From positions 2,854 to 66,853 of the forward strand of contig CAWIIC010000003.1 of assembly GCA_963836045.1 (NCBI GenBank): a stretch of DNA of 64,000 nt. The letters run 5' to 3'. The translations under genes and the position numbers were made by a program. Positions 6,819-27,847 of this stretch are shown here, one piece after another. Under the pieces are notes generated by a model that was given only the letters and a program-made list of their open reading frames with translations, was not told the origin of the DNA and ran no database searches. The DNA comes from an uncultured Pseudomonadota bacterium. Its GTDB lineage: Bacteria; Chloroflexota; UBA5177; JAJPKF01. Numbering within the stretch: position 1 is the stretch's first letter; each line of letters begins with the position of its first letter.

Positions 6819-7105
6819 GTTCTCCGGGTCCGTCCTAGTCGGAATCGCCTCTATCAGGCTAGCACATGTCTGGGAGTACCTCAGTTCATCCAGAGCCGAG
6901 GCGGGCTTAAGTACTCCGTCGCGGCAAGCTGTTATTCCAGCTGGCTTGATCTGACGGCCTGATGGGGTTCGTCTTGGGCTCTTTTGCCGCGAATCCTCTC
7001 GACGCCGTTACTGCGCCACGCGCCACCAATTGCGAAATGAACACCCTACCAGTTGACGCTTTGACAGCTACACACGCGACTTCACATCGCACAGAGCAGC
7101 CATAG

Positions 7106-7270
7106 CTACTCGTTGGTGTTTGCAAGCGGCGCGGTCTTGTCCAGGGCAATCGCGATCTGATGAAGACTGGTGAGGTGGATCCGGCTTCCCTTCATCGCGG
7201 CGTTTACCCTGGACGCGCTGAGGGCAGCGGCACGCGCCAAATTTTTCCGTGTCCAGCACCCCCGAGCCAT
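7106..7270 (-). CDS. Possible 54-aa helix-turn-helix protein (below the ORF-track size cutoff)
   Basis: My own translation gives MARGCWTRKNLARAAALSASRVNAAMKGSRIHLTSLHQIAIALDKTAPLANTNE. The segment LARAAALSASRVNAAMKG...LHQIAIAL resembles an XRE-type HTH. There is no other support. Confidence 0.3.
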   Translation of the reverse strand: MARGCWTRKNLARAAALSASRVNAAMKGSRIHLTSLHQIAIALDKTAPLANTNE

Positions 7271-7703
7271 CTCGCAGTGCAACTGTCGATGATTAACGCG
7301 TATTCTCAGTTGGGGCCTCCTACGGGATTTGGAGTTCGGACGCGATCGCTATCATGGGTGCAAGTGGGAACCAGGTCCTCACGTATCAGAACGTGCCGGC
7401 CTGGATCATCTCTCTCTGGGTCTGGGTTCGCTGTTGGCACGCCCGGGAGGATAGACAGCCACGAGGAATCAGTCGTGGTCAACGCCTCGGCTGGCCACCC
7501 CCTCATCAGATTTACGTAGGGACTGTTTGAGCTCAGGCGTGGAGTAACGCGGACTCTCGTCTATGGCGGCAACCAGCTACGTGGCTGATGGGATAAAGCT
7601 CGGACCGGACTTGCGGGGACTCGGGCTCGGCGAGCAACTTGGGCCAACCCCTTCGTTGTTCGCAGCCCAGAGTTTTTGAGAATCAGACCCCCGCTAAAAA
7701 CGC

Positions 7704-8204
7704 CTACTTGACCTGGAATTTCGCATCGATCGGCTGACCGAATCTGTAGACTCTACTGACATCACGAGTCTTCGGCACATGACCGGCAAACGCTAATTCA
7801 TATATGAGGTCGTAAAAACCAGCATGCGACGGCGCTCGGAAACGGACTCTTACATTCACGGACGTTCCGGGTTTGGCGTTTGGGACTGATGTAGTTGCCG
7901 CGGAGCTATTTTCCACCGTGGCCCTTCCGGCCGAGTCGCCTTCGAACCAGATCAGCACGAGGCGAACGTTGTGCCACTCGATCGCGCCGCAGTTCTTAAG
8001 CTTCCACACCTTTCTTGCCAGTTTGCCAGCTGCTAGCGGCGGTCCTCCATTGGGAATGGTTACATCGCTCACCCAGCTTTCGCACAATCCGGTGTAGAAG
8101 GACTTTGCAGGGGTCCGCATTGCTAATCCAACCGATGCGTTGACAAGGACAATGACACTGAACGCCATAATCCAGAAGACGAATGGTCGAATACTGTTCA
8201 GCAT
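7704..8204 (-). CDS. Membrane-anchored protein with NBR1-type Ig-like (FW) domain
   Basis: An N-terminal hydrophobic anchor (FVFWIMAFSVIVLVNASVGLA) is followed by SDVTIPNG...KVWKLKNCGAIEW...KPGTSVNVRVRFRAPSHAGFY...FGQPIDAKFQV. This matches the bacterial NBR1-like Ig-domain pattern. Confidence 0.7.
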   Translation of the reverse strand: MLNSIRPFVFWIMAFSVIVLVNASVGLAMRTPAKSFYTGLCESWVSDVTIPNGGPPLAAGKLARKVWKLKNCGAIEWHNVRLVLIWFEGDSAGRATVENSSAATTSVPNAKPGTSVNVRVRFRAPSHAGFYDLIYELAFAGHVPKTRDVSRVYRFGQPIDAKFQVK

Positions 8205-8230
8205 GGAATCAGCCCCGGCGGCAATTTCTT

Positions 8231-8991
8231 ATGACAGCATGGCTCCCAAGTATTATCGTCACCGCCTCTAGCCTCGTCGTCGTTTTTCTGATCGATGAGT
8301 ACCTGCCACGTAGACCGGAGATTCGGTGGCACGTCGGCAACCACCGTCTGACGATCAGCGAGGACTTTCCACAATTGCAGTTCGTCTATGCGAAAGAATC
8401 ACGGAAACGACTGTCGGTCGCCACAGTCTTCTTATACAACAGTGGTTGCGATACGCTTAAATCCGATGACGTGAAGGATTTCTCCATCCGTAGCTCGACG
8501 GGCAACCAGATACTGGCCGTGCGGGTGGTTGCGACTAACGATGCGAAATGCGATCTAGCTGTGGAGGATAGACCGGAAGCGTTGTCACGGTGTTCCGTCG
8601 CATTCGCGTTCTACGGCGGAAGCGTGGAGCTGTTATTCAAGTACTACACACAGGGTCACGTGCTAGCGACATCTGTGTCTCCACGTCGTTTGCGACGGGA
8701 GATGACCGTGAGGCTGACGTGACCGGAGATGTTCGGCGCTTAGGCCGCTTTCGCGGCCGAACCTCAATGGCCTGGGTCACGGCGGTCACGGCGGGACTCG
8801 CTCTTCTCATTGGAGCTGACGCACTGTCGATTTCCTTCGCTCGATCCGATACCCTCAACACGGCCACGGCTCTATACCTCTCTGGCGCCGTATTCTTGGG
8901 CGTGACGTCAGCTCAGCTATCCCGATCAAGCCTCCCGCGTGAGCTGCGAGCCGCGTATTGCGGTGCCCTGGCCGCCCTCGCCGACGACTAG
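8231..8991 (+). CDS. Hypothetical membrane protein, possibly two frames (8231-8722 and 8590-8991)
   Basis: An ATG at 8231 gives MTAWLPSIIVTASSLVVVFLI (TM helix). A second frame adds two further TM-like helices (WVTAVTAGLALLIGADAL, LYLSGAVFLGVTSA). No family recognised. Confidence 0.25.
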
Positions 8992-9263: not shown

Positions 9264-9469
9264 GACATTTCCCCTCTCCCCACGGAAAGAACCTTGCAGT
9301 CGACCGGTTCCAAGCTGGGAGTCCGTTGCCGATCAGTCAGGACTGCAACGTGGGCGAGCGTACACCAGTTCAACGTCGGGATGCAGGTGGCGAACGACGC
9401 AAATAGCCTCAAGCAGTCAACGCCAAGAACCGCGCGGGCGGCTGGCGCAAATTGATGCGAGGAAGGAGC

Positions 9470-9660
9470 CATTGATTAGTCGAGGCGTGGAGATCTCGCA
9501 GCCGAGCAACGTCATGTTGAACACACAGCTCTTCCGTTCGGAGACAATCGGGGTAGCCGCCTCGACACCAGGCATTCGAGTGTTGGGAAGGCTCAACAGA
9601 GGCTGATAGAATTTCCTTGCGGCTGCGTCCACACTCTTAGTCCAGGGGGCACGGTAGCTG
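9470..9660 (-). pseudogene. Decayed duplicate of the 5' end of the nucleotidyltransferase gene at 18117-18900
   Basis: VDAAARKFYQPLLSLPNTRMPGVEAATPIVSE (ORF 9417-9671) corresponds to MDATARKQYQPLLSLPKTRIPAVEAATRIVSE (18.9 kb). Nucleotide blocks are shared, e.g. GCTCAACAGAGGCTGATA and GTTCGGAGACAATC.GGGT.GCCGCCTCGAC. Confidence 0.5.
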
Positions 9661-10101
9661 AGCCCGAACATTTCGACCGGCTAGATGTCGTGATGCACGC
9701 ATCTCGCCCACCACGAACGGGGGTTTGGTGTGCGCCACTCCCCAGGTGCTCCGCGGTTTCTCGGAGAAATGTTTTACTAGCGCCTTTGGCTTGTACCCGA
9801 CGATAAGAAACGGTACGAGAATTTTGGCGGTTCCATCGCGCCGCCATAGACGACCCCCTGCCTCGAGGCGGGTATCCACCGCCAGTAACAGGGGTCTGGA
9901 TTCTCTTCTCCAGTGACGGTGCCGGGCAGCTCCTGTGAGACTGACTCGACCAGGAAATATGCACGAAAGCATATTCGGCACGTGGAGGCGACCTCGTACC
10001 ACCAGATTGAGATTTGTCCTCCTGGATGTTTTCGCACATCGATCTTGTCACTGACCTTGCCCCGTTTTCGCGGACACATTTTTTCTGGACTCTCTAGGCT
10101 G

Positions 10102-10761
10102 CTAACGTGGTTCCGTGGCAGCCCTCCTCGTATGTTGCCGGACTGACGTTGCCGAGCGTGGTGTGCCGGCCGTCCCCTCCGCTGGGTCACAGATGAGATC
10201 CGTCGGGGTCGGTGCAGTCATCTCTACCATCAACTGGATGATGTGGCGAGGCGTGCGGAACTGGCCATTCTGTCCCGCCGATGCGATCTTGCTCAGCATG
10301 TACTCATAGAGATCACCTTTGGTGTCCCGTTCTTCCATAGGTACATCCGAGATCATGTCGACTACCTTCGCCAGCAGTGCGGGCGTTGGGATCGTGAAAC
10401 GCGCATCTCTCATGTGGTGCTGATAGGTTGAGCCGTCATCGCCAAGCATTCGGAGCCAGGGGAAAATGTGCTCGCTGACAACTACATACATGTCGGCAGG
10501 TGCGAGGTTCTTGAAGCGAGACCATCGAAAGTCGACGTATGGACGACCACGAGAGTCGGAACCTTCGGGGAACACAGCGCGCTCAATTGGGTCGCCCGTC
10601 CGGGCCGACCTGTTCTCCGCAAGGGTCTGGAGATCATCGAGCCGCCGCAAGAAGAGAAGGTAGGTGATCTGCTCGATGACTTCTAGCGGATTGGAAATTC
10701 CGCCCGACCAAAATGCGTCCCAGATGCGGTCGACCTGATTCTTGATGGCGCCTGTGATCAT
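10102..10761 (-). pseudogene. hsdM: Type I restriction-modification methylase HsdM, N-terminal ~200-aa fragment
   Basis: HsdM_N-type N-terminus (IWDAFWSGGISNPLEVIEQITYLLFLRRLDD) and the start of the N6-methylase domain (GQFRTPRHIIQLMVEMTAPTPTDLICDPA). The sequence breaks off where CGTAGFL should follow. No hsdS or hsdR gene is nearby. Confidence 0.8.
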
Positions 10762-11110: not shown

Positions 11111-11141
11111 ACTGTGCCACTCTCCACCCAGGCGGAAAAAC

Positions 11142-11466
11142 TAATGCAATAGGTAATGCCAGGCCGAAAAGTAATGCAATACGTAATGCAAAACGAGTGA
11201 TCTACCGGAGTCTAGGAGCGTCCAGCGTGATTGCCGATGTCCACGAATCGTTTGCGGAACGCCATGTTTGGACTCACTTGGAAACGCCTGGATACAATGA
11301 GGTCGGTTTGCTAAACCGCTAAGGGGGTAACGCCCTTCGAGGGTTCGAATCCCTCCCTCTCCGCCACAGCCCTTTATTCCAGCCAAAATGCTGTCGGTAT
11401 CCTGCTCACTTCCGGTCGCGATCTCGTCTAGTTAACGCGCAAACACTGCAAAAGTACTGCAAAAGT
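11142..11466 (+). repeat. tRNA-3'-portion module, Ser(GCU) type, with flanking direct repeats (att-like)
   Basis: GTAATGCA(A) occurs 4x at 11142-11191. The core at 11303-11366 reads TCGGT-TTGCTAA-ACCGC, then a long variable arm with a 5-bp stem, GAGGG-TTCGAAT-CCCTC, and CCTCTCC-G-CCA. ACTGCAAAAGT occurs 2x at 11445-11466. There is no canonical D arm, and the candidate 5' acceptor strand pairs only 5/7. Confidence 0.7.
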
Positions 11467-11547
11467 TTCTTCACCCCGGGAACGTGAGGTAATGGCAGCA
11501 CAGCAACCCAGGTCCGGTACTCTTCCACCAGAAGCGGTCCACGGCTA

Positions 11548-12255
11548 TTGGATCAGATGTTCGCCGTCTGGATCATGCCGTCGCTCGTTGCAAGAGGTTT
11601 GACGCTCGAACGGTCTGAAATATCCCAGGCGTTGATTCTGCTAATACCTTCCATGCCTCCCACAGTGCATATCAACTCAGAGGCGGAGTTGGTCGCAGTG
11701 TTTGCTGCCGCAACCCGAGACATTTCACCGGGAGAACCGATCACTGGAGACGACGTCACAGAACTGGTTGGGATCCGTCCCCGCGAGGACCCCGGTGACT
11801 CCGGCTGGCTAGCATTCGCGACTGTCGGAAGCGAAATCATTGTTGGATGGGACGGCCGACGCAACCGCAAGAGCGCATCCCGACTCGTTGATCGAGCTCG
11901 CGAATTCCTTGCATGCGCCATCGACTCCGTGAGCAATGGCCGATTAGCGCCGGCGGTGGAGTGCGCATTCGCAGCCGCAGAACTAGGTGTCAAAGCTGAC
12001 ATGTTTCTTATGTTTGATCGACCGACGACGAAGCACTGGGAACGGGCCAACTGGTGGTCCGAGTGGGAACGGCTCGGAAACGCTCCGGACGGGACGGCAA
12101 GTACGCTGAGCCGTCTCTATTCTGAGCGTCCAAGTGCTCGATACGCCGAATCCCAAGTCAATGTTGATCCAGCCGAGATGTCATCATTGCTGGAATCGGT
12201 CTCGGTCCTGATCGAGCATGTGGCTGAACGGATCGCCGTCGAGCTGGTGCCCTAA
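11548..12255 (+). CDS. Hypothetical protein with HEPN-like C-terminal helical region
   Basis: The C-terminal half (ASRLVDRAREFLACAIDSVSNGRLAPAVECAFAAAELGVKADMFL...HWERANWW...RLYSERPSARYAE...LLESVSVLIEHV) follows the HEPN helix pattern. I cannot point to a clear R-x4-6-H motif. Confidence 0.4.
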   Translation: MDQMFAVWIMPSLVARGLTLERSEISQALILLIPSMPPTVHINSEAELVAVFAAATRDISPGEPITGDDVTELVGIRPREDPGDSGWLAFATVGSEIIVGWDGRRNRKSASRLVDRAREFLACAIDSVSNGRLAPAVECAFAAAELGVKADMFLMFDRPTTKHWERANWWSEWERLGNAPDGTASTLSRLYSERPSARYAESQVNVDPAEMSSLLESVSVLIEHVAERIAVELVP

Positions 12256-12268: not shown

Positions 12269-13000
12269 TCACTCAAGTTCGGGTTCACTCCGAGGCTTGC
12301 TGAACAGGGCATCCACGCGGTCGGCTGCATCTTTGTGTAGCGTGGGCAAGACGTGGCTGTAGGTGCCCAGCGTCAAGCTAATCGTGCTGTGACCCAACAT
12401 CTCTTGCACGACGCGTGGATGAATGCCTTCAGCAAGAAGTTGCGACGCGGCTGTGTGTCGTAGGTCGTGAACGCGGATGCGGGACAGGCTGGCCTTCTGC
12501 TTTTCGCACACCAATTTCGAGCGCGCGGACTTTCCGTCACCTGCCCAATGTGCGATGTATCCGAAAGAATTTTGACTCGAGTCGATGCCCAGTTCGTGGC
12601 AGACGGCGTGAATGCCGCATGAGTTCGCGCCAACTCCTATCGAAAGCGCATCCAGCGTAGCGAACACTGACGGAGTTGCTCGATCACTGCATTTCTCGAT
12701 GGATGGCGGCAACGTCAATGGCCCTGAAGGGCACCAGTGCAACACAAACTCCAAGGAAACGTCCCACATCACTCAATAGATGGAAGTGTTCCAACTGAAA
12801 CGTCTCGAGTCGATGACAGCGGCGGCACCTTCTGCGGTAGCGGTATAGCGTCGCTGTCGTGATCCAAACGCATTCGGGGGAACATGACTTCCAACCCGAA
12901 GGTCCGGCGTTCTGGGGTCCCCGCCAGTTGTTGAACACTCGATCACGCTGATACGCATTCGATGACAGCGCGATCGGTCCTTCGATTAGCTGGTGAGCTT
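12269..13000 (-). pseudogene. Tyrosine recombinase (phage-type integrase) remnant
   Basis: The C-terminal catalytic blocks are intact (VHDLRHTAASQLLAEGIHPRVVQEMLGHSTISLTLGTYSHV). The box I region is degenerate (ALSIGVGANS, where TGLR..E is expected). Upstream parts are scattered over two other frames (12773-12958, 12684-13124). Confidence 0.75.
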
Positions 13001-13091
13001 CAGCCTGACCGGATGGGCAACCCGTCCGTCGGCTCGTCGTAGAGGAAGGATTTGGCCCACTCGTTGGGGGTCTCGCTTGTACACTGGAAGT

Positions 13092-13797
13092 ATGGCGCAG
13101 TGCACAGCACCTGTACGCGGCCACCGTTCATCGGCCGCTGCTGCGAATTGTCCTGCTTGCGGGGGACGGGGATACTACCGCTCTTCCTACTCCTACTCTC
13201 CGCCCGTCTCGTCTTACCGGAGCGGGTCGTCATTCGGTGGGGCCGGTTCAAGCGGCGGCAGGTCCTCCGGCGGTGGGAGATCGCGTCGGACTAGGGCTGG
13301 CGGATCGGTCTCGTACAGCCCAACCGAGTGGCGCTCCATCGAACCCCTCGCTCGCAAGGCCGTCGAGCAATCGCGCGAGCACCCAGACCGTCGGGACCTT
13401 TTCTTATGCCATGCATGGGACGATCGAGAGGGCAGCGCCTCTGAGTTGTACAACCGCCTGCAATCCAATGGCGCGTCGGTCTGGTTCAGCGAGAAGGATG
13501 TTCCCCTCGGCAAGCAGTTGATCCGTGAGATCGACAAGGGGCTCAAGAACTCTCGCGTCGGAATCGTGCTGGTGACCCCGGCGCTGCTCAAGAGCATCGA
13601 TGGAAAAGGAACTCTCCGTGCTGCTCGCGACCGGCCGGGTTATCCCCGTTGCGCATGGGACCACCTTCGAGGCACTGCGAGAGGTCAGCCCGATGCTGGC
13701 GTCGCACGCGGGACTGAACACGGCAGATTCGTCGCTGGCGGACGTGGCCGCCAAGGTCGCCGCAGCAGCAGCGGCGCTAGCCGACGACGGGGTCTAA
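13092..13797 (+). pseudogene. TIR-domain protein with Cys-pair N-terminus and Gly/Ser-rich linker; one frame break at ~13603-13610
   Basis: The order is MAQCTAPVRGHRSSAAAANCPACGGRG, a low-complexity SSYSYSPPVSSYRSGSSFGGAGSSGGRSSGGGRSRR linker, then a TIR_2-like block (DLFLCHAWDDREGSASELYNRLQSNGASVWFSEKDVPLGKQLIREIDKGLKNSRVGIVLVTPALLKS). The conserved tail ELSVLLATGRVIPVAHGTTFEALREVSPMLAS lies in the frame of ORF 13600-13797. Confidence 0.75.
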
Positions 13798-14199: not shown

Positions 14200-14365
14200 G
14201 GCTGCAAAACGGCTGCAAAACACGATGGAGGAACATGGATGTTCAGGGACAATCGCGGTCTGAGCTCCACAGAATTACGCCAGAAATGGATGTTGACGGA
14301 TGACTGCGGACCGATGACATGGAACTTCTAATCCGATGGTCGCCGCAGGCGCTGCATCAAGGTCC
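14200..14365 (+). repeat. Truncated tRNA-3'-portion module (identity unclear)
   Basis: GGCTGCAAAAC occurs 2x (14200-14221), followed by the GATGTTCAGG block shared with the 23.4-kb module. Then comes CTTCTAATCCGATGGTCGCCGCAGG (14325-), which aligns with GTTCTTTTAATCCGTTGGTTCCGGG of the Lys-type module. The T arm and acceptor are missing. Confidence 0.45.
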
Positions 14366-14367
14366 AG

Positions 14368-14649
14368 TACTGCAAGACGTACTGCAAAAGGAGACCGTCC
14401 AGATACATCTAGGTGCGGCCAGTCACCAATGCCGTTGCGCACTTTTGGCGTCTCCGCTGGTCTCATGGATCGCTATGGATGCGCCTGGAGGAGCGAGATT
14501 CGGATTGCTAATCCGCTGTGGGGAGTAATCTCTATTGCGGGTTCGAATCCCTACCTATCCGCCACAGCCCTTTCTTACGGCGACAAAAACGACCGATTCG
14601 GTTCTGCGTTACGTCGTTTCGTTCTACTTTGGGACCAAGTACTGCAAAG
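14368..14649 (+). repeat. tRNA-3'-portion module, Ser(GCU) type, with flanking direct repeats (att-like)
   Basis: TACTGCAAGACG/TACTGCAAAAGG at 14368-14391. The core at 14500-14564 reads TCGGA-TTGCTAA-TCCGC, a long variable region, GGGTTCGAATCCC (T stem imperfect), and CCTATCC-G-CCA. The downstream CAGCCCTTT is shared with the 11.3-kb copy. GTACTGCAAAG lies at 14639-14649. Confidence 0.65.
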
Positions 14650-16960: not shown

Positions 16961-17036
16961 TAACCTACATCCTTGTTTGCCCAGCAGTTTAGCCAAAAAC
17001 AGCATATCAACAATGGATTGCAATGCGGCCATCTAC

Positions 17037-18110: not shown

Positions 18111-18116
18111 GCCTAG

Positions 18117-18900: not shown

Positions 18901-19028
18901 GCTCTTAGTGTAGGTGGCGCGATTCCAATTGCGTGTCGGGCTTAACAATAAGTGAGAAGGTTGGGGGTGTACAGTCGATGTACAGTAATGCGGTACTCGA
19001 ATAGCATCAATCAATCTCATTGCCGGTG

Positions 19029-19973: not shown

Positions 19974-20475
19974 TGATCCTCCTCTCTATTTGCTGCAAAG
20001 TGCGCGATAGCTGCTTTCGAGTAGCTTCAGGCGTTCTCTTTATCAGTCGAGCAATATCAGGAATCGTCAGTCCCGCTGCAAACCGAAGAGCGATGAGGTC
20101 CTGTTTGTCTTTGGGGAGATCGGAGACGATGGAGCGAACTTGGCGATATTCGTCGGCATACTCGACCTCGGATTCGGTGTCGTCGCTCGATGCGATATCA
20201 GGCAGCGGAGTAGTGAGCCAACCGCGTCGTCGGGCCTGCCGGTGACGGTCGACAACGAGGTGTCGGGCAATGGTAAACAGCCAGACTGCAGTAGCGTCGC
20301 ATTGGGCATCGGGTTTCGAGAGCGCAGCCCAAGCTTTCGCAAAAGTCTGTTGGGTTAAATCATCGGCATCCTCCGGAGATCCCGTCCTAGTCCGGAAGTA
20401 CCAATAAACGCGCTCGCGATGTAGACGATAGAAGTCCTGGAAGGCCTCTGTTCCAGGGTTCTGTGCATCAACCAT
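19960..20475 (-). CDS. ECF-type sigma-70 factor
   Basis: Region 2 (DADDLTQQTFAKAWAAL, WLFTIARHLVVDRHR) and region 4 (LPKDKQDLIALRFAAGLTIPDIARLIKRTPEATRKQLSRTLQQI). Confidence 0.85.
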   Translation of the reverse strand: MVDAQNPGTEAFQDFYRLHRERVYWYFRTRTGSPEDADDLTQQTFAKAWAALSKPDAQCDATAVWLFTIARHLVVDRHRQARRRGWLTTPLPDIASSDDTESEVEYADEYRQVRSIVSDLPKDKQDLIALRFAAGLTIPDIARLIKRTPEATRKQLSRTLQQIERRINETC

Positions 20476-20606
20476 CCGACCCGCTGCTCTCAGAAGCTTG
20501 CCCCTTGATTATCAGTCGTACCAGCACGTACCTGATTGGGTGTCCACCAGGGTCGGCTCGACCCCACTATTAAATAGAACGCTCGATACGGCCAAACCGG
20601 ACATCA

Positions 20607-22043
20607 ATGTGTAGTGAGGAAACGCCTGAAATAGAGCACTGTTTGCTGCCCGAATCGGCGCGTTTGTCGGACCGTTATTTATGTGTATTGGAAAGGCGCA
20701 TAGCATGGGTAGTGACAGACCTCCCAATCGAGAAGAGTCAGTCTCTCTGCCGCTATCGTCTCCTCATCGGGGACAACCAGAAGAGGATTCTCGTCGACGC
20801 CCGCAATTCCAAGGTCCGGCTACCAACCTGGCTCACGGGGCGCGGTCACCCCTTGCAAGCGACCGATCACATCAACAAGTGGACCCTGTCGCGAACGGGC
20901 GTGAGGGCAATCACTCTGCGCTGCATCTCGACGGGTCCGAGCCCAGATGGCGAGTCCATCGAGCGGCGGTACGAACTTGCGGCACTTCGCCCGGTCGATC
21001 CGGCAGAAGGATTTCTTTGGATCTCGAGGGATGAGGTGCCCGAACTCGCTACCCCTTCAGAACGGAATCTGGCCGAAACACACTTTTCGGATTTCGCTTC
21101 TCCGCCCGCTGCCCGCCGCCCGTGGGCAAGGCCGGGTTGGTGGGAGACTGCCGCCGCATGGATCCAGCAGCAGCTTCAGGTGGCGGGACATAGGGGCGAA
21201 CCAAAGATAACGCAAATCAGTAGCTGGGAACGTGGCTGTGTCTTGCGAGTCGTTAGTCCAGCTGCGACGCTCTACTTCAAAGCATTGCCGCTGCAGTTGG
21301 CCCATGAGTTAGGCGTGCTGCGCAGCTTGGCGATGGAGAATCCTAGTCTGGTTCCAAAGCTCGTAGCGGCCGATGAGGACTGCCGTTGGATCCTCACAGA
21401 GAAGATGCCTGGTCGCGCGCTTAGCGTTCGGGATGACGTGGATCAGTGGCGTACTGCCTGCTCTGTCCTCGCCAAGTTGCAGGTCGGCAGCATCGCCACC
21501 GCAGAGCTGTTTCGAGCGGACCTTCCCTCTCGTGGCGTGGACTGGATGCTCAACAAGTTAGCCGCTGATCCCTTTCGACGCGCTGATATTTCGCCCGAGT
21601 TTCGGGCGCAGCTTGGAGCGCGACTCACTGGCCTGAGGTCGCAGGCCCGACGACTGGCGGCGCTTTCTCTTCCGTCGGCAATCGAACATGGCGACCTAAT
21701 TCCCAGCAATATCTTCATCCATGCGGGAAATGCAGTGATCTTCGACTGGACCGACGCCTCCGTCTCCATCCCCTTCTTCAGCCTATGGTCGCTGCTCGAC
21801 GCAATCGGAACTGATGTAGCCCACCTCGGCACAAAGACTGCGCGGAAAGCTCTGGTAGACGCCTACTTTCGCAAATGGAACAAGCTAGCGAGCGACGCAA
21901 CGCTATCCGAAGCCTGGCGCCTCACGCAGCGGCTCGCACCGCTCCACTTGGCACTGCGCTACCAGTTCGACATCCTGCCGGCCGTGGAGTCGCGCTGGGA
22001 AATGGAAAACATGGTGCCCTACTTCCTCCACAAGCTAGCCTGA
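20607..22043 (+). CDS. Phosphotransferase-family (APH/choline-kinase-like) protein
   Basis: Catalytic block IEHGDLIPSNIFIHAGNAVIFDWTDASVSIPFFSL (the HGDL..N...DW.D pattern). The N-terminal ~150 aa are unassigned and the start codon is uncertain. Confidence 0.7.
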   Translation: MCSEETPEIEHCLLPESARLSDRYLCVLERRIAWVVTDLPIEKSQSLCRYRLLIGDNQKRILVDARNSKVRLPTWLTGRGHPLQATDHINKWTLSRTGVRAITLRCISTGPSPDGESIERRYELAALRPVDPAEGFLWISRDEVPELATPSERNLAETHFSDFASPPAARRPWARPGWWETAAAWIQQQLQVAGHRGEPKITQISSWERGCVLRVVSPAATLYFKALPLQLAHELGVLRSLAMENPSLVPKLVAADEDCRWILTEKMPGRALSVRDDVDQWRTACSVLAKLQVGSIATAELFRADLPSRGVDWMLNKLAADPFRRADISPEFRAQLGARLTGLRSQARRLAALSLPSAIEHGDLIPSNIFIHAGNAVIFDWTDASVSIPFFSLWSLLDAIGTDVAHLGTKTARKALVDAYFRKWNKLASDATLSEAWRLTQRLAPLHLALRYQFDILPAVESRWEMENMVPYFLHKLA

Positions 22044-22459
22044 CCGGAGAGTATTTGGACGGCCATAGATTGTTCAGGAATCTGAGCCGTCGGGATCTAT
22101 ATGTTCGCGAATCGTTAAATTGCTGCCAGCTATTGAACGCGGTGGCATGCTGTGAATAGGTCCGGGGGGGACGAGCAAACCGCGTCCGACGTCCAGATAT
22201 TCAGTGTTAGGCAAAGACATGCCTTAATGCTAACGGGTCGTTGTTGTTCTCAGGTCCATCAACGTACGAATGAGTTTGGCCAGGTCACGTGTCTGAAATA
22301 ATTGGTGAGCCGCGATGGCATTGCATAATCGTGGAAACAAGCGCTGGATGAAATGCGGCTCGCGCGTACGCCAGTAGAAAGTGACGTGATCCGATCACCG
22401 ACATTGTCAGTCTGCTTACTGAACTTGGTATCTCTGGCGCTGAATACGAGAGCCAACTC

Positions 22460-23228
22460 GTGCAGACTCGGTTTCGGCAGAAGCTTGTTGACGCCTGGAG
22501 AATCCTTCCGGGCACTGCAATCTTGGAGGTTGGGTGCGGTCAGGGAGACATGACACTCGTGCTCGCGGCCGCAACGGGTGCAGATGGGCACGTCACTGCA
22601 ATTGACGCAGCAGACGAAACTTCGGGCTCACCGCTTACCTTTGCGAAGGCCACGGCGCGCATTCGCCGATCTCGTGTTGGAAAAGCAGTCTCCTTTCGAT
22701 TCGGCGTCGATGTTCTCGAGCCTGAAGGTGGTCCTGCCACGATCTCACTACGACTGCGCTGTGCTGGCTCACTCGCTTTGGTATTTCGCTTCCATGGACT
22801 TGTTGCAACGAACTCTCAAGCGAATGAAGGAGTTGGCCGATCGGCTTTATCTCTCAGAGTGGGACCTGACACCGACAAGGAAATCCCAGCTGCCACACTT
22901 TGCAGCGGCCCTAGTCCAGGGATGGACATCTGCCTGGAAACCCGATCGCCGCTGCAATATTCAGACACTTATGAGTCGACAGGCGATCGAGCGGCTTGTT
23001 CTGGATGCCGGCTGGACAATCGAAACCAATGTCTCCGTCGACAGCTCAGACCTTCAGGACGGCAGATGGGAGGTTCTCAACTGTCTCCAGATACTCAGCT
23101 CAGGAATCGGTAGGGACGACTCAACGACTATTGAGGGCCTGGACTTGGATAATGTGAAAATACTTCTCCAGCAGTCAGCGTCTGAGGCTCTGCCATCGTT
23201 TGCAATGCGTTGCCACCAACCGCAATGA
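22460..23228 (+). pseudogene. Class I SAM-dependent methyltransferase, one frame break at ~22730
   Basis: Motif I ILEVGCGQGD and VTAIDAAD lie in ORF 22460-23113. The continuation RSHYDCAVLAHSLWYFAS... lies in ORF 22578-23228. Confidence 0.7.
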
Positions 23229-23338
23229 GATGCGACCAGTTTGGCGATGACCATCGCGCACCTCTCCGCGGACGGTTCTTCAGGGCACGCATAACACCTT
23301 CGTCACCACGCGAGGAAGGACGGTCGGCAGCGCCACCT

Positions 23339-23640
23339 GTACAGCAAGCCGTACAGCAAACGTGACGTCTGCCGATGTTCAGGCATGTCCGCGGAAGTAG
23401 GGCTCAGTTGAGATGTGGCTAAAGAACGCCACAACTAGACGTGGAGAGACACCCCAAGATGCCTGATCAGCGTTCTCATAATCCCTTGGTCGCTGGTTCG
23501 AATCCGGCCGGGCCCACCAAATCTCGACTGCTTGTTTCTCCCGGGATAACGCCACAAACAGCGCTTAACCTAACCACATTTCGGGAGCATTCAACTTAAC
23601 GATAAGCACGGATTTTCGTCTTGTACAGTTGTTGTACAGT
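23339..23640 (+). repeat. tRNA-3'-portion module, Met(CAU) type, best preserved, with flanking direct repeats (att-like)
   Basis: GTACAGCAA 2x (23339-23359). The core at 23475-23519 reads CTCATAA-TCCCT-TGGTC-GCTGG-TTCGAAT-CCGGC-CGGGCCC-A-CCA. GTACAGT 2x at 23623-23640. The 5 nt before the loop (GCGTT) cannot pair with TCCCT, and no GGGCCCG 5' strand is present. Confidence 0.7.
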
Positions 23641-24000
23641 AATGGCAATTCCGAGCGACCGAGACGGCATGCTCTTAGTCTTCCGGTGTGATGCGGAGGT
23701 GTCAATCAAGGACTTTCACGAAACGCTTAGGCTGAGTCCAAGAGATGACAGTGATGGGGGTTTAACGTTCCCGCTGAGTTGACATCGTTCACGGTCGTCA
23801 GTATGTCGAGATGTGTGCAACCCGCTGACCGAATTTCTGTGGAGGCACGCGCTCACCCTCGATCAGAGGCAACGCGTTGGCGGCGAGTTGAGTAAGTCCT
23901 GCAGTGCGCAGATCCATGCTGGCGTCAGTAAGCAGACGATCTCGCCCACGAACCGTCCAACCGATTCAGCCGCATACGCTCAAGCGACCATGCGAGCCGG

Positions 24001-24612
24001 TCACGAATCTAAAGCGGGGTGCCAGCGTCCCGATCGTATCTGCGGTCTGGAAGGCCCAAGGCTGGTTCGCCCCGTCAGGTATAGCAGCCCGTCCCAGGGA
24101 TCCTGGTCCTTGGGAAGATTAGACAAGGGAAAGAGGCGAGCGCAGATCTTGGAGCAGACGGTTCTATCAGGATGTATCTTTCCATGAAGGCCCTGACAGA
24201 TGTCCCAGCCGTGAACATAGAGTTCCATGCCAGCCAATGCGTTAAAAGCCATCGCATCTGCCAGTCCCCATGGGTGATAGGCATGTGCACTGGGGCCGAC
24301 AGTGCGCAGGGTGGCCACCATCATGCTACTCGCGGCCTGGATGAACTCCACGGCGTCTTTGGAATCAGCACCGCTCGTCAGCCTGGCTCGGAACTCGACA
24401 TAGTGGTCGGTAGGTCCCGCAGCAAGTTGCCCAGCATAGGCCAAACAGTCATCAGCCATGTGACTCGCCGTTCGCAGGCAGCTCCACCGAAGTGAGCCTG
24501 CTCGAACTGACCAATCCTTTCCCGTCAGGGGACTCAGAGAGTCTAGCGTTTGGTCAATGGCAGTTTGCAGATCCAATGGCGTGAGGAATTGGGACATCGC
24601 CACGTCGCTCAA
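24001..24612 (-). CDS. DinB/MDMPI_N-like (mycothiol-dependent maleylpyruvate isomerase N-terminal domain) protein
   Basis: DWSVRAGSLRWSCLRTASHMADDCLAYAGQLAAGP... matches the DinB_2/TIGR03083-type helix-bundle pattern. Confidence 0.65.
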   Translation of the reverse strand: MSDVAMSQFLTPLDLQTAIDQTLDSLSPLTGKDWSVRAGSLRWSCLRTASHMADDCLAYAGQLAAGPTDHYVEFRARLTSGADSKDAVEFIQAASSMMVATLRTVGPSAHAYHPWGLADAMAFNALAGMELYVHGWDICQGLHGKIHPDRTVCSKICARLFPLSNLPKDQDPWDGLLYLTGRTSLGPSRPQIRSGRWHPALDS

Positions 24613-25153
24613 CTCCTGGGCAGGTGCTGCAAAAGTCTACAGGCTGTTCCTGGCTGCATCTCGCATGTCAGGAATCCCTCTTGACCAGAGCGTCAAGGCT
24701 TCCTCCTTTGTCACATCGCCGCGCTCGCCCTTCACCCACCAGTCGCGCGCCGGATTCGTTTCAAGTATGGGTCCGCCGTCTTGTGATGGCCGGTGAGCGA
24801 GGCGCAGCTCACAATGTTCCCTGCCGGCAGACGAGCTTCGGACAGCGAAGCCCTGGACCCACTCGACCCAAACCACAGTGAACAGCACACCACCACGTCT
24901 GTCCCACCTCCTATGCTGGGAGAGTATCCCGCACCCGCAGCCAAACCATCCAGGCGCGCTGCCCAACTCACTTGTCTACCATCATCCAGGGGTAAGTACA
25001 AGGACGACAGGAAGATCGGCCAGGAACCGGTTGAGAGGACTTACCTCTTCCTGTCACGCTGGTCACGCTGGCATTCACCAGCCAAAGATTGACTGCCCTG
25101 CAGCGTGCTAGGCTTTAGCGTGGTTTGCTCCGAAGTCAAAACAGGAGTTACCA

Positions 25154-25876
25154 ATGTACAGGATTGTGCTGGCGTTTCCCGTGGTGCCCGGTAAGAGCGA
25201 AGCCGAGGTCACCGCAATCGCCGACGTATTCCGTTCTCGTCCTGTGGAATACCGAGAGGCACGGCAGCGCATTGGTATCACGCGGGAACGAGCCTATTAC
25301 CAGAAGTCACCGATGGGCGATTTCGTGGTCGCTTACATCGAGAGCGAGCGCCCCTACAGTGAGGCGGCCGCGAGCCTGGTGTCGTCCACGCAGGACATCG
25401 ATCATCAGTTCGTACGCCACGTCAACGAAGTGCACGGTGTTGATCTCACCCAGCCGCCTGCAGGTCCCGCACCCGAAACGGTTGCTGAGTGGTTTGATCC
25501 GAACGCTTCCGGCCGCCTCCGTGGCATGGCCTTCTGCGCACCCCTTCTTCCTGGCCGCTACGATGCCGGCAAAGCATGGGCACACGAAGCCTTTGTCACC
25601 CGTCGTGACGAGCTGACTGCATCCCGTCGCGCGTGGGGTCAGACCGGTGAAGTCGTCACCGTGATGCAGACGCCGCACGGCGATATCTGCTGCGTCTACC
25701 TGGAAGGCACTGACCCTGTGGAGGGCAACCGGAAGTTCGCTGCCTCGAATACCGAATACGACCGCTGGTTCAAGGATCAGCTGAAGACGCTGTTTCCGCC
25801 GCAAGTCGACTTCAATCAGCCGGTCCCATCAGTGACCGAGATTTTCGACTCAGCGTCGCTCTTGGTCGCAAGCTAA
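25154..25876 (+). CDS. Hypothetical protein made of two tandem ~115-aa repeats
   Basis: Good RBS (AGGAG 7 nt upstream). Both halves share the pattern ..P..PGK/R....A......R..E...SR...G...E......P.GD....Y.E...P. No family recognised. Confidence 0.5.
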   Translation: MYRIVLAFPVVPGKSEAEVTAIADVFRSRPVEYREARQRIGITRERAYYQKSPMGDFVVAYIESERPYSEAAASLVSSTQDIDHQFVRHVNEVHGVDLTQPPAGPAPETVAEWFDPNASGRLRGMAFCAPLLPGRYDAGKAWAHEAFVTRRDELTASRRAWGQTGEVVTVMQTPHGDICCVYLEGTDPVEGNRKFAASNTEYDRWFKDQLKTLFPPQVDFNQPVPSVTEIFDSASLLVAS

Positions 25877-26096
25877 GGGAAGCTACCGGGCGCGGGCGTG
25901 CAGGATGGCATGCCACTCGCGACACGGAGTATGGGTTGGGGAGCTACGATCAACGACGGCCTCAGCCCGCGGATGCTTTCGTAGCTGACTGGCCGGAACG
26001 AGTGTCGATCGATGGGACTGGATTGCTAAGTGGACCGCGCTGGAAACACGGCGTAGAACCTCCAAATCCGTGGTGGCGCTGTCGGAAGCAGGACCT

Positions 26097-26370
26097 GTAC
26101 AGCAATCTGTACAGCAAAAGTGCCGATCTACCGATGTCCAGACGCGTCCATGGAGCTATACATCAGGTGAAATCGGCGGAAACACGCCACTCCTGGACAG
26201 TGGTAACGCGCGCAGACGCCGTATCAGCGTTCTTTTAATCCGTTGGTTCCGGGTTCGAGTCCCGGCGCCCTCACCAGCCGTTTCTGGCGGAATGATGCCA
26301 GGGTCAGTGAAGCGTCCGAGTCGGAGGAACTCGATAATAAGTCGCTCGTCCAGCGAAAGTACAGCAAAAG
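26097..26370 (+). repeat. tRNA-3'-portion module, Lys(UUU) type, with flanking direct repeats (att-like)
   Basis: GTACAGCAA 2x (26097-26117). The core at 26232-26276 reads CTTTTAA-TCCGT-TGGTT-CCGGG-TTCGAGT-CCCGG-CGCCCTC-A-CCA. GTACAGCAAAAG at 26359-26370. The upstream ~130 nt align with the 23.4-kb module along their whole length. Confidence 0.7.
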
Positions 26371-26567
26371 TATTTCCAACCCCGTCACGCATGACTGCAG
26401 ACTTGACTATGCGATCGCTCCTGGTTGATGAGTCACCTACGTCGACGAAACTCGCGTGTCGAACGGCGGGACAGGCAAGTGGTCCCTCACGACTGTGCTG
26501 ACAAAGCGCGAAGCCCAGTCGGTGAGAGGCTTCTTCGTCAGGCGCTAGATCATTTGACAAAGAGACG

Positions 26568-27223
26568 ATGATGCCCATCGCCGGAGAGCTCGTCACGGAG
26601 ACGCTCGAGTATGACGGTGGTCGTCAAGTCACGGTGTACGTCCCGTCGGGTACGCCCGAGGCTGTCGTGTTCGCCGGTGACGGCCAGTTGATCTCGCAAT
26701 GGGGAGGAGCCCTTGAGGCGGCCGACTTACCGCCGACGATGATCGTCGGTACACACCGGCTAGCCGACGAGACGCTGCGGCTCCACGAGTACTCACCGAC
26801 CTTCGACCCGGGACGGTTCGCGCTGCACGAGAGATTCTTCGTCGACGACGTCCGCCGATGGGCGCGGTCGCGCTTCGGAGTCGCGCTTGCCCGCTGAACG
26901 TACCGCGGTGTACGGTGTCTCAGCGAGTGGAGAGCCGGCGCTCGCCGTGGGGGCTTCGGCATCCCGAGGTCTACGGCGCGGTTTTCTGTGCCTCCCCGGG
27001 CGGCGGCTACCGACCGCCGGGCGTAATGCCGGGGTCACTTCCAGGCGCGTACCTCGTCGCGGGCACGCTGGAGCCTTTCTTCCGAAAGAACGCGACCCGG
27101 TGGGCGGTTGCACTGCGCGATGCAGGCGCGGACGTTGTGATGACCGAGGGGGCGGGATCGCACGGCGATGCCTTCTGGCGAGAAGAACTCCCCTTGATGG
27201 TGGCCTGGGCGTTCGTGCAATGA
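26568..27223 (+). pseudogene. Putative esterase (enterochelin-esterase-like alpha/beta hydrolase), >=2 frame breaks
   Basis: Three frames are needed to read it: VTVYVPSGTPEAVVFAGDGQ... (26568-26897), ERTAVYGVSASGE.ALAVG carrying the GxSxG nucleophile elbow (26887-), and RHPEVYGAVFCASPGGGY...GSHGDAFWREELPLMVAWAF (26858-27223). Confidence 0.65.
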
Positions 27224-27847
27224 AATGTCGCGATGTCGGCCGCTGACGCGCTGCCTGCCGATCTGAAGCGGCGTCAAGAGCGCGCAATCGCACGTATCTG
27301 CGAGTTTGGCCGCTCACGACCTCGTTGCCTAGCCGAGGAAGGTGTTCTTTATCTTGCAATCGAGGATGCTTCCCGGCATCCTACTAGGAACTCGTCAGCC
27401 GAGAGATTGAAGCACTTCCGCAAACCGCGCACGGCGGTCAATGGGACGCTATGAACCACATGTTGTTCCGGGACACGGATCGGCTATCACGTCGTGAAAC
27501 AGGAAAGCCTGGCTAGTGGACCAAGTGGCAGCAGCTTGGGCAGCATCGGATGCACCGGAAACGTCAGCTGTATGAGCGGAGGCGGCGTGCAGCTAACATT
27601 CACCAAACGACTAGCCAGCCAGCGCTCGCGCCTCCAGCTTGGGCCTTCCAGATGTATCCGTCAGGCCATGCGCTCCTGCGATGACATTGCCGTGGGGACA
27701 GTGACTATGATGGCGCTGCCGACTGCTGGGACGCGGTCGGCCTCACGTCGGATTGCTTCTTCCACCGCAAACGAAAGCCAGTTATAGAGCCTATGGCCGT
27801 GCGGGGGAATGAAGGACCTCATCCGGCATCCGGGAAGAGATGAATGG

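Follow-up and report, generated by a model that had tools for sequence, protein, structure and literature searches.

A decaying island of attP-like junctions with mixed tRNA cores, probably accreted at a tRNA-Lys(UUU) gene, in an uncultured Chloroflexota genome

Results

The region from 6.9 to 27.8 kb of a 64,000-nt stretch (the window) of contig C3 from an uncultured Chloroflexota genome (G000, the host genome) is, with a probability that we put at about 80%, the distal, decaying part of a tandem-accretion island anchored at a tRNA-Lys(UUU) gene. The modules that separate its blocks of cargo genes appear, from their sequences, to be attP-like junctions of one tyrosine-integrase family. The first-pass annotation had favored modular accretion over one large island, and we reach the same view, as the boundary elements read as integrase attachment-site junctions and a sister strain differs by whole cassettes.

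Extent and composition of the island

The host genome is a 5-Mb MAG of 16 contigs, 89% complete. The GC content of the island had been judged by eye to be low, and this was borne out: it is 0.574 vs. 0.603 ± 0.012 for the 21-kb windows of the genome, placing it in the lowest 0.6%, while individual blocks range from 0.53 to 0.62. The left flank had been called an RHS operon; instead, Pfam identifies an RCC1-repeat protein and the following gene:

2868–3788: IS630-type transposase (Pfam, left flank)

Neither ARAGORN nor Rfam identified an intact tRNA in the 64-kb window, and contig C3 has none in its first 82 kb. The limits originally drawn at 6.9 and 27.8 kb are not real ends, since synteny (see below) anchors the island at a tRNA-Lys(UUU) that would lie left of the window, making the island larger than 6.9–27.8 kb. 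The proposal that a tRNA-portion module bounds every block holds between 11.3 and 26.3 kb, where the modules are real, but no module is alignable at the outer limits (~6.9 and ~27.8 kb), which counts against the accretion reading. We found no relative sharing the 20-kb region, and HMM searches uphold the TIR, HEPN, and HsdM assignments.

tRNA cores and arm words

On the + strand, the interval 11.3–26.3 kb contains six tRNA 3′ portions, of the types Ser-GCU, Met-CAU, and Lys-UUU; there are also an Arg-UCU-like core that is truncated and a single orphan arm pair. The cores are flanked by paired arm words, as follows.

11142–11192, + strand: P-arm words GTAATGCAA, 3–4 copies, left of core A1
11304–11366, + strand: core A1, tRNA-Ser(GCU), anticodon stem to CCA (63/64 to host tRNA-Ser, C10:163663–163727)
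11445–11466, + strand: P′ arm pair, ACTGCAAAAGT twice, the left inner face of element c2 (word again at 14367–14387)
14200–14312, + strand: module R1, with arm pair GGCTGCAAAAC twice, P-proximal ACGCCAGAAATGGA motif, and Arg(UCU)-like anticodon loop/stem CTTCTAATCCGATGGTCGCCGCAGG
14367–14387, + strand: P arm pair, GTACTGCAA twice, the right inner face of element c2
14501–14564, + strand: core A2, diverged tRNA-Ser(GCU) 3′ portion (single P′ word at 14639)
16778–17085, + strand: module B1, tRNA-Met(CAU) core at 16915–16957 with decayed T arm; arm pairs GTACAGTGAT/GTACAGTAAT at 16778–16800 and GTGCAGTAGAT/GTACAGTGATG at 17064–17085
18078–18099, + strand: core A3, tRNA-Ser(GCU) anticodon arm only (18/18 to host)
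18968–18990, + strand: orphan arm pair TGTACAGTCGATGTACAGTAATG, core missing (word identical to the P′ arms of B2)
23339–23644, + strand: module B2, tRNA-Met(CAU) core at 23475–23519; P pair, GTACAGCAA twice, at 23339–23359; P′ pair GTACAGTTGTTGTACAGTAATG at 23622–23644
26097–26369, + strand: module B3, tRNA-Lys(UUU) core at 26232–26276; P pair, GTACAGCAA twice, at 26097–26117; P′ word GTACAGCAAAAG at 26359, with a degenerate copy before it

The word GTACWG(C/T)AA occurs 12 times, always on the + strand between 11.4 and 26.4 kb and nowhere else in the 64 kb, and 6–7 of the genome's 17 GTACWG tandem pairs fall in the island. The modules are mutually only 65–80% alike. The R1 core (at about 14283–14312) is truncated in the T arm, directly against the following arm pair; its likeness to Arg(UCU) was read by eye and is not significant by BLAST against host tRNA-Arg, and its P side is homologous to that of a sister-strain module whose loop is Leu(UAA)-like. 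In A2 the T stem has decayed and the pairing of the anticodon stem is kept via a compensatory change. The B2 core has 91% identity to the host tRNA-Met, yet 100% over 52 nt to the tRNA-Met of a relative, G003, and the module is retained in the sister strain. The P sides of B3 and B2 are 71% identical. Aligned with the 3′ part of the intact tRNA-Lys(UUU) of the sister strain, the B3 core agrees at 45/45 positions, and the P side and core of B3 together align over 195 nt with a junction of the relative G002 at 77% identity. The Met and Lys loops differ at 2/7 positions. Element c2 lies between two Ser cores, and its two inner faces carry one and the same arm word; the ends of most blocks are unlike in tRNA type and arm words, and most are therefore not simple one-element cassettes.

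The geometry of the modules is shared with canonical attL/attR sites beside intact integrases in relatives. For instance, in G005 a tRNA-Lys(UUU) has a P′ arm pair at +100 and a 378-aa integrase on the opposite strand, beyond which are a P arm pair at −135, GGAC pairs, and a displaced fragment, and on a Dormibacteraeota contig, arms of the GTACTGCAA type lie 4.9 kb downstream of a tRNA-Lys(UUU). The host genome itself contains a dozen classical tRNA-linked fragments starting at the anticodon loop, and intact integrases beside tRNA-Ser(UGA) and tRNA-Lys(CUU). Two results count against the accretion reading: no intact integrase with GTACWG arms was found in the 89%-complete host genome, and the cores of this one stack are of three to four tRNA identities.

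Cargo genes

The genes identified in the blocks are listed below.

7704–8204, − strand: NBR1-type Ig-like domain protein, 166 aa, block c1 (PF16158, E 5e-11)
9417–9671, − strand: NTase-like gene fragment, block c1 (homologous only to the N-terminus of the 18.1–18.9 kb gene)
10102–10761, − strand: HsdM N-terminal 219 aa, truncated type I restriction-modification methylase, block c1 (PF12161, PF02384)
11548–12255, + strand: HEPN-domain protein, block c2 (PF05168, E 2e-6)
12269–12772, − strand: tyrosine integrase remnant, block c2 (PF00589 positions 119–169 of 172)
12993–13797, + strand: ThsB-like TIR gene, one frameshift near 13600, block c2 (PADLOC ThsB1, E 4e-63, profile 1–172/234)
14862–16376, + strand: DUF6119/TIGR04141 protein, intact, 504 aa, block c3 (PF19614, E 9e-100; TIGR04141, E 2e-92)
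16419–16772, − strand: small HTH protein, a weak call, block c3 (PF13560, E 0.003, below cut-off)
17037–17882, − strand: BamE/BLIP-like putative lipoprotein, block c4 (PF07467, PF04355, weak)
18117–18921, − strand: NTase-like gene, one frameshift, block c5a (PF01909, E 0.002–0.04, below cut-off)
19029–20475, − strand: block c5b, ECF sigma factor and overlapping downstream 314-aa ORF
19960–20475, − strand: the ECF sigma factor itself, block c5b (PF04542, PF08281)
20607–22043, + strand: APH-family kinase-like protein, 478 aa, block c5b (PF01636, E 1e-16)
22460–23228, + strand: SAM methyltransferase, split over two frames, block c5b
24001–24612, − strand: DinB/MDMPI-like protein, block c6 (PF11716, TIGR03083, weak)
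25154–25876, + strand: DUF6176 protein, 240 aa, block c6
26526–27223, + strand: esterase pseudogene, two frameshifts, block c7 (vs. intact paralog C13:17628–18268)
27309–27479, + strand: remnant, 81% to part of a 199-aa gene in another sister-strain cassette

HMM searches confirmed most of the initial gene calls (NBR1-Ig, HsdM, HEPN, the integrase remnant, the ThsB1-like TIR, DUF6119/TIGR04141, ECF sigma, APH, methyltransferase, DinB-like, and DUF6176), with the lipoprotein and HTH calls weak, and the esterase call gained support through its intact paralog, which matches PF00756 (E 1e-6). The NTase call is weak, its PF01909 matches being below threshold. The 5′ part of the c1 NTase fragment (repeat X1, 9535–9653) is 82% identical to 18803–18921. 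The HsdM fragment matches PADLOC MTase_I (E 1e-64) over profile positions 2–204 of 491. The integrase remnant is integrase-like over its last ~70 residues only, and its identity is 61% to the G005 integrase, which is intact and adjoins tRNA-Lys(UUU), and 56% to the sister-strain integrase. The C-terminus of ThsB (177–230 of 234) is in another frame, at 13600–13797, and there is no ThsA near this gene. The best outside homolog of the DUF6119 protein is 30% identical, and on Logan contig L028 the c4 lipoprotein is predicted with a length of 251 aa. The 314-aa ORF, a putative anti-sigma factor, has no Pfam support. The DUF6176 protein, earlier described as a duplicated-domain ORF, has a single PF19673 match covering residues 4–93 only, and is residue-for-residue identical in the sister strain (ENA contig_37070), in which the c5a NTase-like gene (260 aa) and the c5b methyltransferase (255 aa) are intact.

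The description of most genes as broken was an overstatement: six or seven of about 18 are demonstrably so (HsdM, the NTase fragment, integrase, ThsB, NTase, methyltransferase, and esterase). Similarly, the suggested defense-type character applies only to the type I methylase fragment, the ThsB pseudogene without ThsA, and the HEPN protein, and does not extend to the remaining cargo; PADLOC and profile searches identified no complete defense system in the island.

Comparison with a sister strain

The sister strain is represented by contig_37070 of ENA ERZ25039590, a 667-kb contig from a separate assembly. Its left flank is 96–99% identical to the start of host contig C6 and is followed by an intact tRNA-Lys(UUU), a TGGTGCTGT arm pair, and an element of 13.9 kb encoding DUF3854/DUF3987 and HTH_17 proteins as well as an integrase of 387 aa. 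Beyond this element, TGGTGCTAT arms precede a displaced Lys core, which is itself followed by a GTACAGCAAA arm pair. Further cassettes differ, until the contig rejoins the window at 18101, ~13 nt right of A3, and from there its order matches that of the window (c5a-c5b-B2-c6-B3-c7, then the kinases), with identities of 92.8% for c5a, 98.7% for c5b, and 99.9% for c6. At the c5a/c5b boundary (18968–18990) the sister strain has an extra 1.7 kb with two modules and two genes, and an IS630 insertion in c6 is another difference. Overall, whole cassettes distinguish the window from the sister strain, and the breakpoints fall where modules lie. An independent Logan contig agrees on the order R1-A2-c3-B1-c4-A3.

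The tRNA-Lys(UUU) and its flanks are absent throughout the G000 assembly, and contigs C6 and C3 both end at the tRNA-Lys(UUU) locus. We infer that the host's own gene is probably unassembled, in the gap between the starts of these contigs. Adjacency to tRNA-Lys(UUU) in the host genome is drawn from synteny with one sister contig, and this counts against the accretion reading.

Discussion

We propose a series of insertions by small integrative elements, all of one tyrosine-integrase family, each of which brought an attP. This attP would have as its core the tRNA 3′ portion, from anticodon loop to CCA, together with a P-proximal ACGCCA/GGAC region and two pairs of arm words. One pair, its words (mostly GTACWG...) one helical turn apart, would lie about 115–135 nt to the left of the core and the other about 100 nt to its right. 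As every insertion would restore the tRNA and displace older elements outward, the junction between neighbors would be attP-like, with the P arm of the left element and the core and P′ arm of the right one. Later, the integrases would have been lost, leaving one C-terminal remnant, the cargo genes would have gained frameshifts and truncations, and deletions would have clipped cores A3 and R1 and orphaned the arms at 18968. Simple one-step insertions do not explain the blocks other than c2, because their ends are unlike. The Met, Ser, and Arg cores may have entered the Lys stack by near-cognate anticodon-loop recombination or within composite elements, and c5b and c6 may be tandem members of one Met-type family (P GTACAGCAA, P′ GTACAGTAATG) that landed on the Lys core B3.

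The unlike ends also figure in a different reading, to which we assign a small share of the probability, namely that the island is an active integron-like capture platform, whose integrase-less cassettes, each with a complete attP-like site, would be captured, rearranged, and cut out again by tRNA-targeting integrases acting in trans. These integrases would tolerate 2–3 nt of anticodon-loop heterology, so that Met, Ser, Arg, or Leu cores could stack in a Lys array. Consistent with such a platform are the integrase-less 1–5 kb blocks between complete P-core-P′ junctions, the integrase-less 2.6- and 4.3-kb blocks between Lys cores in G002, and the likewise integrase-less 1.1–1.6-kb blocks adjoining tRNA-Met and tRNA-Ser in G003 and G005, as well as the differing cassette content of the two strains. 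In two pairs of modules, B2 and B3 (Met and Lys) and R1 and the sister module (Arg(UCU) and Leu(UAA)), the P sides are homologous and the cores differ chiefly in the anticodon, and a heterotypic junction also occurs within the host genome's tRNA-Thr island. However, the window has no intact integrase and the genome none with matching arms, the many truncated cores and arms and decayed genes suggest a dead array, and deletions fusing neighboring elements would also yield unlike ends.

We consider it improbable that this is a true orphan array, moved off its tRNA by rearrangement or imported in a larger composite element and not beside tRNA-Lys(UUU). The lack of a tRNA both in the window and over the initial 82 kb of C3, the IS630-type transposase at 2868–3788, and the scattering in the host genome of the order's ancestral Ser...Met tRNA neighborhood would all fit, but the sister strain has the right-hand cassettes and kinases downstream of tRNA-Lys(UUU) with a left flank that is the end of C6, both C6 and C3 terminate at the locus, and the B3 core reproduces the 3′ part of tRNA-Lys exactly. 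Almost no weight attaches to the heterotypic order being an artifact of metagenome assembly or binning, with a contig chimeric at repeats: the genome is a MAG of 16 contigs and the modules are repeats, but at 65–80% likeness they are too diverged to mislead an assembler, the Logan contig spans R1, A2, B1, and A3 with one indel and one SNP, and the 667-kb ENA contig, from another assembly, keeps the order c5a-c5b-B2-c6-B3-c7 and kinases. Just as implausible are functional tRNA-like RNAs or regulatory elements in place of recombination sites. The 3′ portions do end in CCA, and the compensatory change in the A2 anticodon stem would be expected anyway, because an attP core joins a working tRNA after integration; in contrast, the 5′ sides are unpaired with the acceptor 3′ strands, ARAGORN and Rfam find no tRNA, the T stems of A2 and B1 are decayed, and the arm pairs and integrase remnant fit att sites.

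Tandem accretion at tRNA-Lys(UUU), the reading that we prefer, has several known counterparts. The flexible tRNA-anchored islands of Prochlorococcus, which grow through successive integration and include tycheposons and remnants of these, have one tRNA and one integrase type per island (10.1101/2020.12.28.424599). They too adjoin a tRNA gene, and nothing but partial tRNA copies stands between their elements; older elements are displaced inward by newer ones, and earlier events are recognizable from integrase fragments and scattered partial tRNAs. The sister strain's live element, like tycheposons, pairs a tyrosine integrase with a primase/helicase-like protein, whereas Ser, Met, Arg, and Lys cores are mixed here, in a Chloroflexota host with a 5-Mb genome. 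CIMEs and ICE-IME tandem accretion (PMC5704250) offer att-flanked integrase-less blocks in tandem with integrase-bearing elements at one site, and internal junctions arising by site-specific accretion; however, we saw no conjugation or mobilization genes here, and most blocks have unlike ends. Hotspots of integration at tDNAs, such as the asn tDNAs of Klebsiella pneumoniae (PMC4891358), share strain-variable content at a tRNA gene and tRNA 3′-end direct repeats that delimit modules, but the modules here are much smaller (1–5 kb), mostly integrase-less, and of several tRNA identities. Integrons and CALINs resemble the island as short gene-cassette arrays with recombination sites between cassettes and no nearby integrase, but here there is no IntI, attI, or attC; instead there are attP-like sites with arm-type repeats and tRNA portions, and cassette orientation is mixed. 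The island is thus of a kind already known, while the mixing of the docking sites of several tRNA types in one stack is unusual.

tRNA-Derived Modules in the Island

No intact tRNA was found in the 64-kb window by ARAGORN, and the tRNA 3′ portions (cores) of the modules were located by searching for repeats, by reading the sequence directly, and by BLAST against the tRNAs of the same genome. Six to seven cores are present as direct repeats of tRNA 3′ portions, every one of them on the + strand; an orphan arm pair is listed with them:

11304–11366, + strand: A1, Ser-GCU core, identity 63/64 to the host gene at C10:163635
14200–14312, + strand: R1, Arg-UCU-like core, truncated, arm pair of its own
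14501–14564, + strand: A2, Ser-GCU core, 77% identical, T stem decayed
16915–16957, + strand: B1, Met-CAU core, T arm decayed
18078–18099, + strand: A3, Ser core, anticodon arm only
18968–18990: orphan arm pair
23475–23519, + strand: B2, Met-CAU core
26232–26276, + strand: B3, Lys-UUU core

The tRNA-like stretches each begin at the anticodon loop or stem, and the sequence to their left forms no tRNA 5′ half. Pairing in the anticodon stem of A2 is retained via a T>A/A>T change. The left (P) arm pair consists of 7–11-nt words spaced 11–12 nt apart, ~115–135 nt left of the core; between it and the core lie an ACGCCA motif and GGAC pairs, nearer the core, and a second word pair (P′) lies ~100 nt right of the core. 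The arm words are mostly GTACWG(C/T)AA, with 12 on the + strand at 11.4–26.4 kb and 0 elsewhere in the window. Six to seven of the 17 tandem GTACWG pairs in the 5.1-Mb genome fall in the island, and two more are located at other tRNA fragments.

Several candidate sources and modules were rejected. The host tRNA-Ser(GCU) gene, considered as the origin of the Ser cores, has neither arms nor an island downstream. The genes of an order-wide tRNA neighborhood, considered for the Ser and Met cores, map in this genome (G000) to contigs C2, C16, and C5 and not to C3, the contig of the window; in L029, L030, and L031 (genomes G006, G009, and G004) this conserved neighborhood has tRNA-Ser(UGA)-Ser(GCU) and, 10–14 kb away, tRNA-Gly(UCC)-Met(CAU), all on one strand. 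The repeat X1/X2, considered as a minus-strand module, is the 5′ coding part of an NTase-like gene. The Met core of B2 (window 23468–23519) matches the tRNA-Met of a relative, G003, at 100% over 52 nt and the host tRNA-Met at only 91%; the B2 element probably became adapted to a different host lineage.

Modules as Attachment-Site Junctions

The modules are attachment-site junctions, because their geometry and the likenesses of B3 and of an integrase remnant match integrated elements in relatives and elsewhere in G000. Since both arms are present, they are attP-like junctions of the kind expected between tandem integrated elements. For instance, a 5.4-kb element in G005 has an intact tRNA-Lys(UUU) gene, an arm pair at +100 and then an opposite-strand 378-aa tyrosine integrase, and its far end has an arm pair at −135, GGAC pairs, and a displaced tRNA fragment, after which host DNA resumes; the window modules share their geometry with such ordinary integrated elements. 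In G000 about a dozen tRNA fragments, all beginning at the anticodon loop, lie near cognate tRNA genes, and tRNA-Ser(UGA) and tRNA-Lys(CUU) are adjoined by intact integrases.

The window's stretch of C3 has no intact integrase, and its sole PF00589 match is the remnant at 12269–12772, which lies ~900 nt right of A1 and points toward it. The last ~70 residues of the remnant share 56–61% identity with intact integrases of the element-borne kind. The block that holds this remnant (c2; HEPN, integrase remnant, and TIR) is bracketed by two Ser cores, with the word ACTGCAAAAG on both inner faces, and fits a single element. B3 matches a G002 junction across its P side and core (77% identity, 195 nt), at a locus where three Lys cores part integrase-less blocks; one junction there has arms of two types, one with GTACTG words and the other with GTACAG words. 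Synteny with G002 via the AI-2E transporters common to both was rejected, as the proteins are only 23% identical. In L013 5560–12860 (G002:C16, record JAJPKF010000010) the cargo is a ketopantoate reductase with a CN hydrolase in one block and SnoaL with a cyclase-NB-ARC STAND protein in another. The leftmost Lys core there has the anticodon ATT and is preceded by an apparent decayed tRNA 5′ half, and therefore an anchoring tRNA can itself decay.

A scan of genome contigs for the arm-pair pattern returned mostly unrelated, largely AT-rich genomes among the 80 matches listed; 14 loci were checked for tRNAs, a few of which were informative. Two contigs of the Anaerolineae MAG H111_70 (L067 6529–6759 and L081 2264–2494) have an identical ~127 nt with three GTACAGCAAAA words and diverge ~30 nt upstream of an intact tRNA gene, which is tRNA-Met in one case and tRNA-Asn in the other; thus arm words occur upstream of whole tRNA genes of two identities.

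Anchoring at tRNA-Lys(UUU) in a Sister Strain

The exact DUF6176 protein of the window was also identified on a 667-kb ENA contig of another assembly. The left flank of the sister-strain contig (ENA ERZ25039590 contig_37070) is 96–99% identical to the start of G000 contig C6 and is followed, at the syntenic place and on the window's + strand, by an intact tRNA-Lys(UUU), a TGGTGCTGT arm pair, and a 13.9-kb element encoding a DUF3854/DUF3987 protein, an HTH_17 protein, and a 387-aa integrase. Next come TGGTGCTAT arms, a displaced Lys core, a GTACAGCAAA arm pair, and then cassettes that are not in the window. The element (L119 8104–22230, a stretch of the same contig) is apparently intact and adjoins tRNA-Lys(UUU); its DUF3854/DUF3987 protein has 895 aa, small same-strand ORFs stand in a row, the integrase is at the right end with a clipped T-loop remnant 10 nt past its stop codon, and TGGTGCTRT arm pairs are found at both ends.

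From window position 18101 rightward the two strains have blocks in common, namely c5a (NTase-like gene; 92.8% identity), c5b (sigma factor, APH, and methyltransferase) with B2 (98.7%), and c6 (DinB and DUF6176; 99.9%), and in the sister gene table these are followed by B3, the esterase fragments, and the kinases. Identity differs by block (window 18101–26027), and these three seem to have separate histories. Everything left of 18.1 kb differs between the strains, the sister contig being compared in part. Further differences between them are an IS630 insertion in c6 and a 1.7-kb segment, carrying two more modules, where the orphan arms are located; the breakpoints map ~13 nt to the right of A3 and to the orphan-arm site, 18.93–19.03 kb. 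The modular accretion proposed in the first-pass annotation is thereby borne out, as the island is real and strain-variable, with breakpoints at modules.

The core of B3 matches the 3′ part of the sister tRNA-Lys(UUU) at 45/45 positions, and neither this gene nor its immediate flanks are present in the 16 contigs of G000. Most simply, C6 and C3 would both break at the locus, with tRNA-Lys(UUU) in the gap between them; by synteny, the gene and ~2.3 kb of upstream DNA would lie between position 1 of C6 and position 1 of C3. The orphan look of the array is most likely due to a contig break. The ends first proposed for the island, 6.9 and 27.8 kb, are not its real ends, and candidate motifs at these limits failed to align with A1 and A2.

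The mixed order of cores is not an assembly chimera, because a 5.2-kb Logan contig spans R1, A2, c3 (the DUF6119 block), B1, c4 (the lipoprotein block), and A3 with one indel and one SNP, and the right half of the island is spanned by the ENA contig. At the DNA level the region was found in none of 30 relatives (none of the same genus), in which the matches were confined to tRNA cores, short HsdM and integrase-remnant pieces, and a widespread esterase gene.

Cargo and Composition

The gene calls for NBR1-Ig, the HsdM fragment, HEPN, the integrase remnant, TIR, DUF6119/TIGR04141, ECF sigma, APH, methyltransferase, DinB-like, and DUF6176 were upheld by HMM searches; with TIR, HEPN, and HsdM among these, and with no 21-kb synteny conserved among the 30 relatives, neither of the two outcomes that would have refuted the first-pass annotation was seen. 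The NTase call is weaker: the family assignment of the gene at 18.1–18.9 kb is under the Pfam threshold, and a PDB relative was not found by sequence. This gene has one frameshift here and is intact in the sister strain, as is the methyltransferase gene, which is also frameshifted here. The description of most genes as broken was too strong, as ~7 of ~18 are demonstrably so. The HsdM piece covers profile positions 2–204 of 491. PADLOC identified the TIR protein as ThsB1 (E 4e-63, profile 1–172 of 234); its C-terminus is in another frame, and therefore the gene has one frameshift.

The label of defense fits only part of the cargo, and PADLOC detected no complete known system: its HMMs matched only the truncated type I methylase and the frameshifted ThsB, with no ThsA alongside, and gave no match for HEPN, DUF6119, and the rest of the cargo. 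The best homolog of c3 is 30% identical, and no relatives of c3 were found in a metagenome scan. The GC content of the island is 0.574, compared with 0.603 ± 0.012 for the genome's 21-kb windows, placing it in the lowest 0.6%.

The + strand esterase gene has two frameshifts relative to an intact paralog on C13 that matches PF00756. This gene (window 26561–27236; G000 C13:17628–18268; L002–L004) has a DNA identity of 77–83% across genera and another family of the class, and is multi-copy, with three in G003 and two in G020. Conservation this high is unusual for such distances and suggests a recent horizontal spread.

The left flank (window 181–6139) had been taken for an RHS operon, a call without Pfam support. 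Its ORFs are as follows:

181–2490, − strand: 769-aa ORF, no match
2868–3788, − strand: IS630-type DDE_3 transposase ORF (Pfam)
4020–5516, − strand: RCC1-repeat protein (Pfam)

BLAST of this segment against ~21 kb of the sister contig (record 318–339 kb) gave no match, and for this reason it may also belong to the variable island.

Mixed tRNA Identities

Ser, Met, Arg-like, and Lys cores, three or four tRNA identities in all, share one Lys-anchored stack, in which the two ends of most blocks are unlike. Described tRNA-anchored islands have one tRNA and one integrase type per island (10.1101/2020.12.28.424599), and the mixed identities are a departure from these. Since the tRNA-like part begins at the crossover, the core moves together with the P′ arm and the block on its right, and the P arm belongs to the block on its left. 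The cores joined to homologous P sides differ chiefly in the anticodon: the Met module B2 (TTCTCATAATCC) and the Lys module B3 (TTCTTTTAATCC) share 71% identity over 194 nt, and R1 (ACTTCTAATCC, Arg) compares in the same way with a module of the sister strain (ACTTAAAATCC, Leu-like). A comparable heterotypic junction occurs on C11, where an Arg-UCU core lies within a tRNA-Thr island. In this tRNA-Thr(GGU) island (G000 C11:96673–109948) the Arg(UCU) core has its own P′ arms and an integrase remnant and lies 2.5 kb before the terminal Thr fragment, making this the second heterotypic junction in G000.

Judging by their arm words, c5b and c6 appear to be two members of a single Met-type family (P word GTACAGCAA, P′ word GTACAGTAATG) and to have landed on the Lys core B3. 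Such a landing could be explained by near-cognate recombination at the anticodon loop, by composite elements, or by deletions that fused neighboring elements. A broader proposal, which we consider improbable, is that integrases of one Chloroflexota family operate a cassette system based on tRNA cores, in which small integrase-less cassettes with complete attP-like sites are swapped in trans and near-cognate cores (Met/Lys, Arg-UCU/Leu-UAA, and perhaps Ser) would be able to recombine because the crossover is at the anticodon loop. If this were true, one tRNA-anchored island would gather cassettes whose targets are several different tRNAs, and an element could move from one target tRNA to another.

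Relation to Known Islands and Significance

The island is strain-variable and was built by modular accretion, and it is of a kind already known (tycheposon-type islands, CIMEs, and tDNA hotspots). It resembles tRNA-anchored additive islands in its direct repeats, its integrase remnant with arm-type sites on both sides, and its strain-variable content, but the one-tRNA-per-island rule is broken in the window array, and the proximal intact tRNA is seen in the sister strain and is absent from the window and the G000 assembly. With their att-like flanks and lack of an integrase, blocks c3–c6 may be CIMEs, elements mobilized by the integrase of a related element. Unlike in integrons, the boundary sites in the window are tRNA-portion modules and not attC, and the only PF00589 match is the remnant. 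The sister element, with its integrase, HTH_17 protein, and DUF3854/DUF3987 protein, is a candidate tycheposon by gene content.

The locus provides a well-resolved case of accessory genes piling up and decaying beside a tRNA gene in a little-studied soil/sediment phylum, one that includes a live donor-type element in the sister strain. For annotation, it indicates that "orphan" arrays of tRNA fragments in MAGs can come from contig breaks at the anchoring tRNA. The mixed identities, together with the homologous P arms on cores that differ mostly in anticodon, hint at how integrases change their target tRNA.
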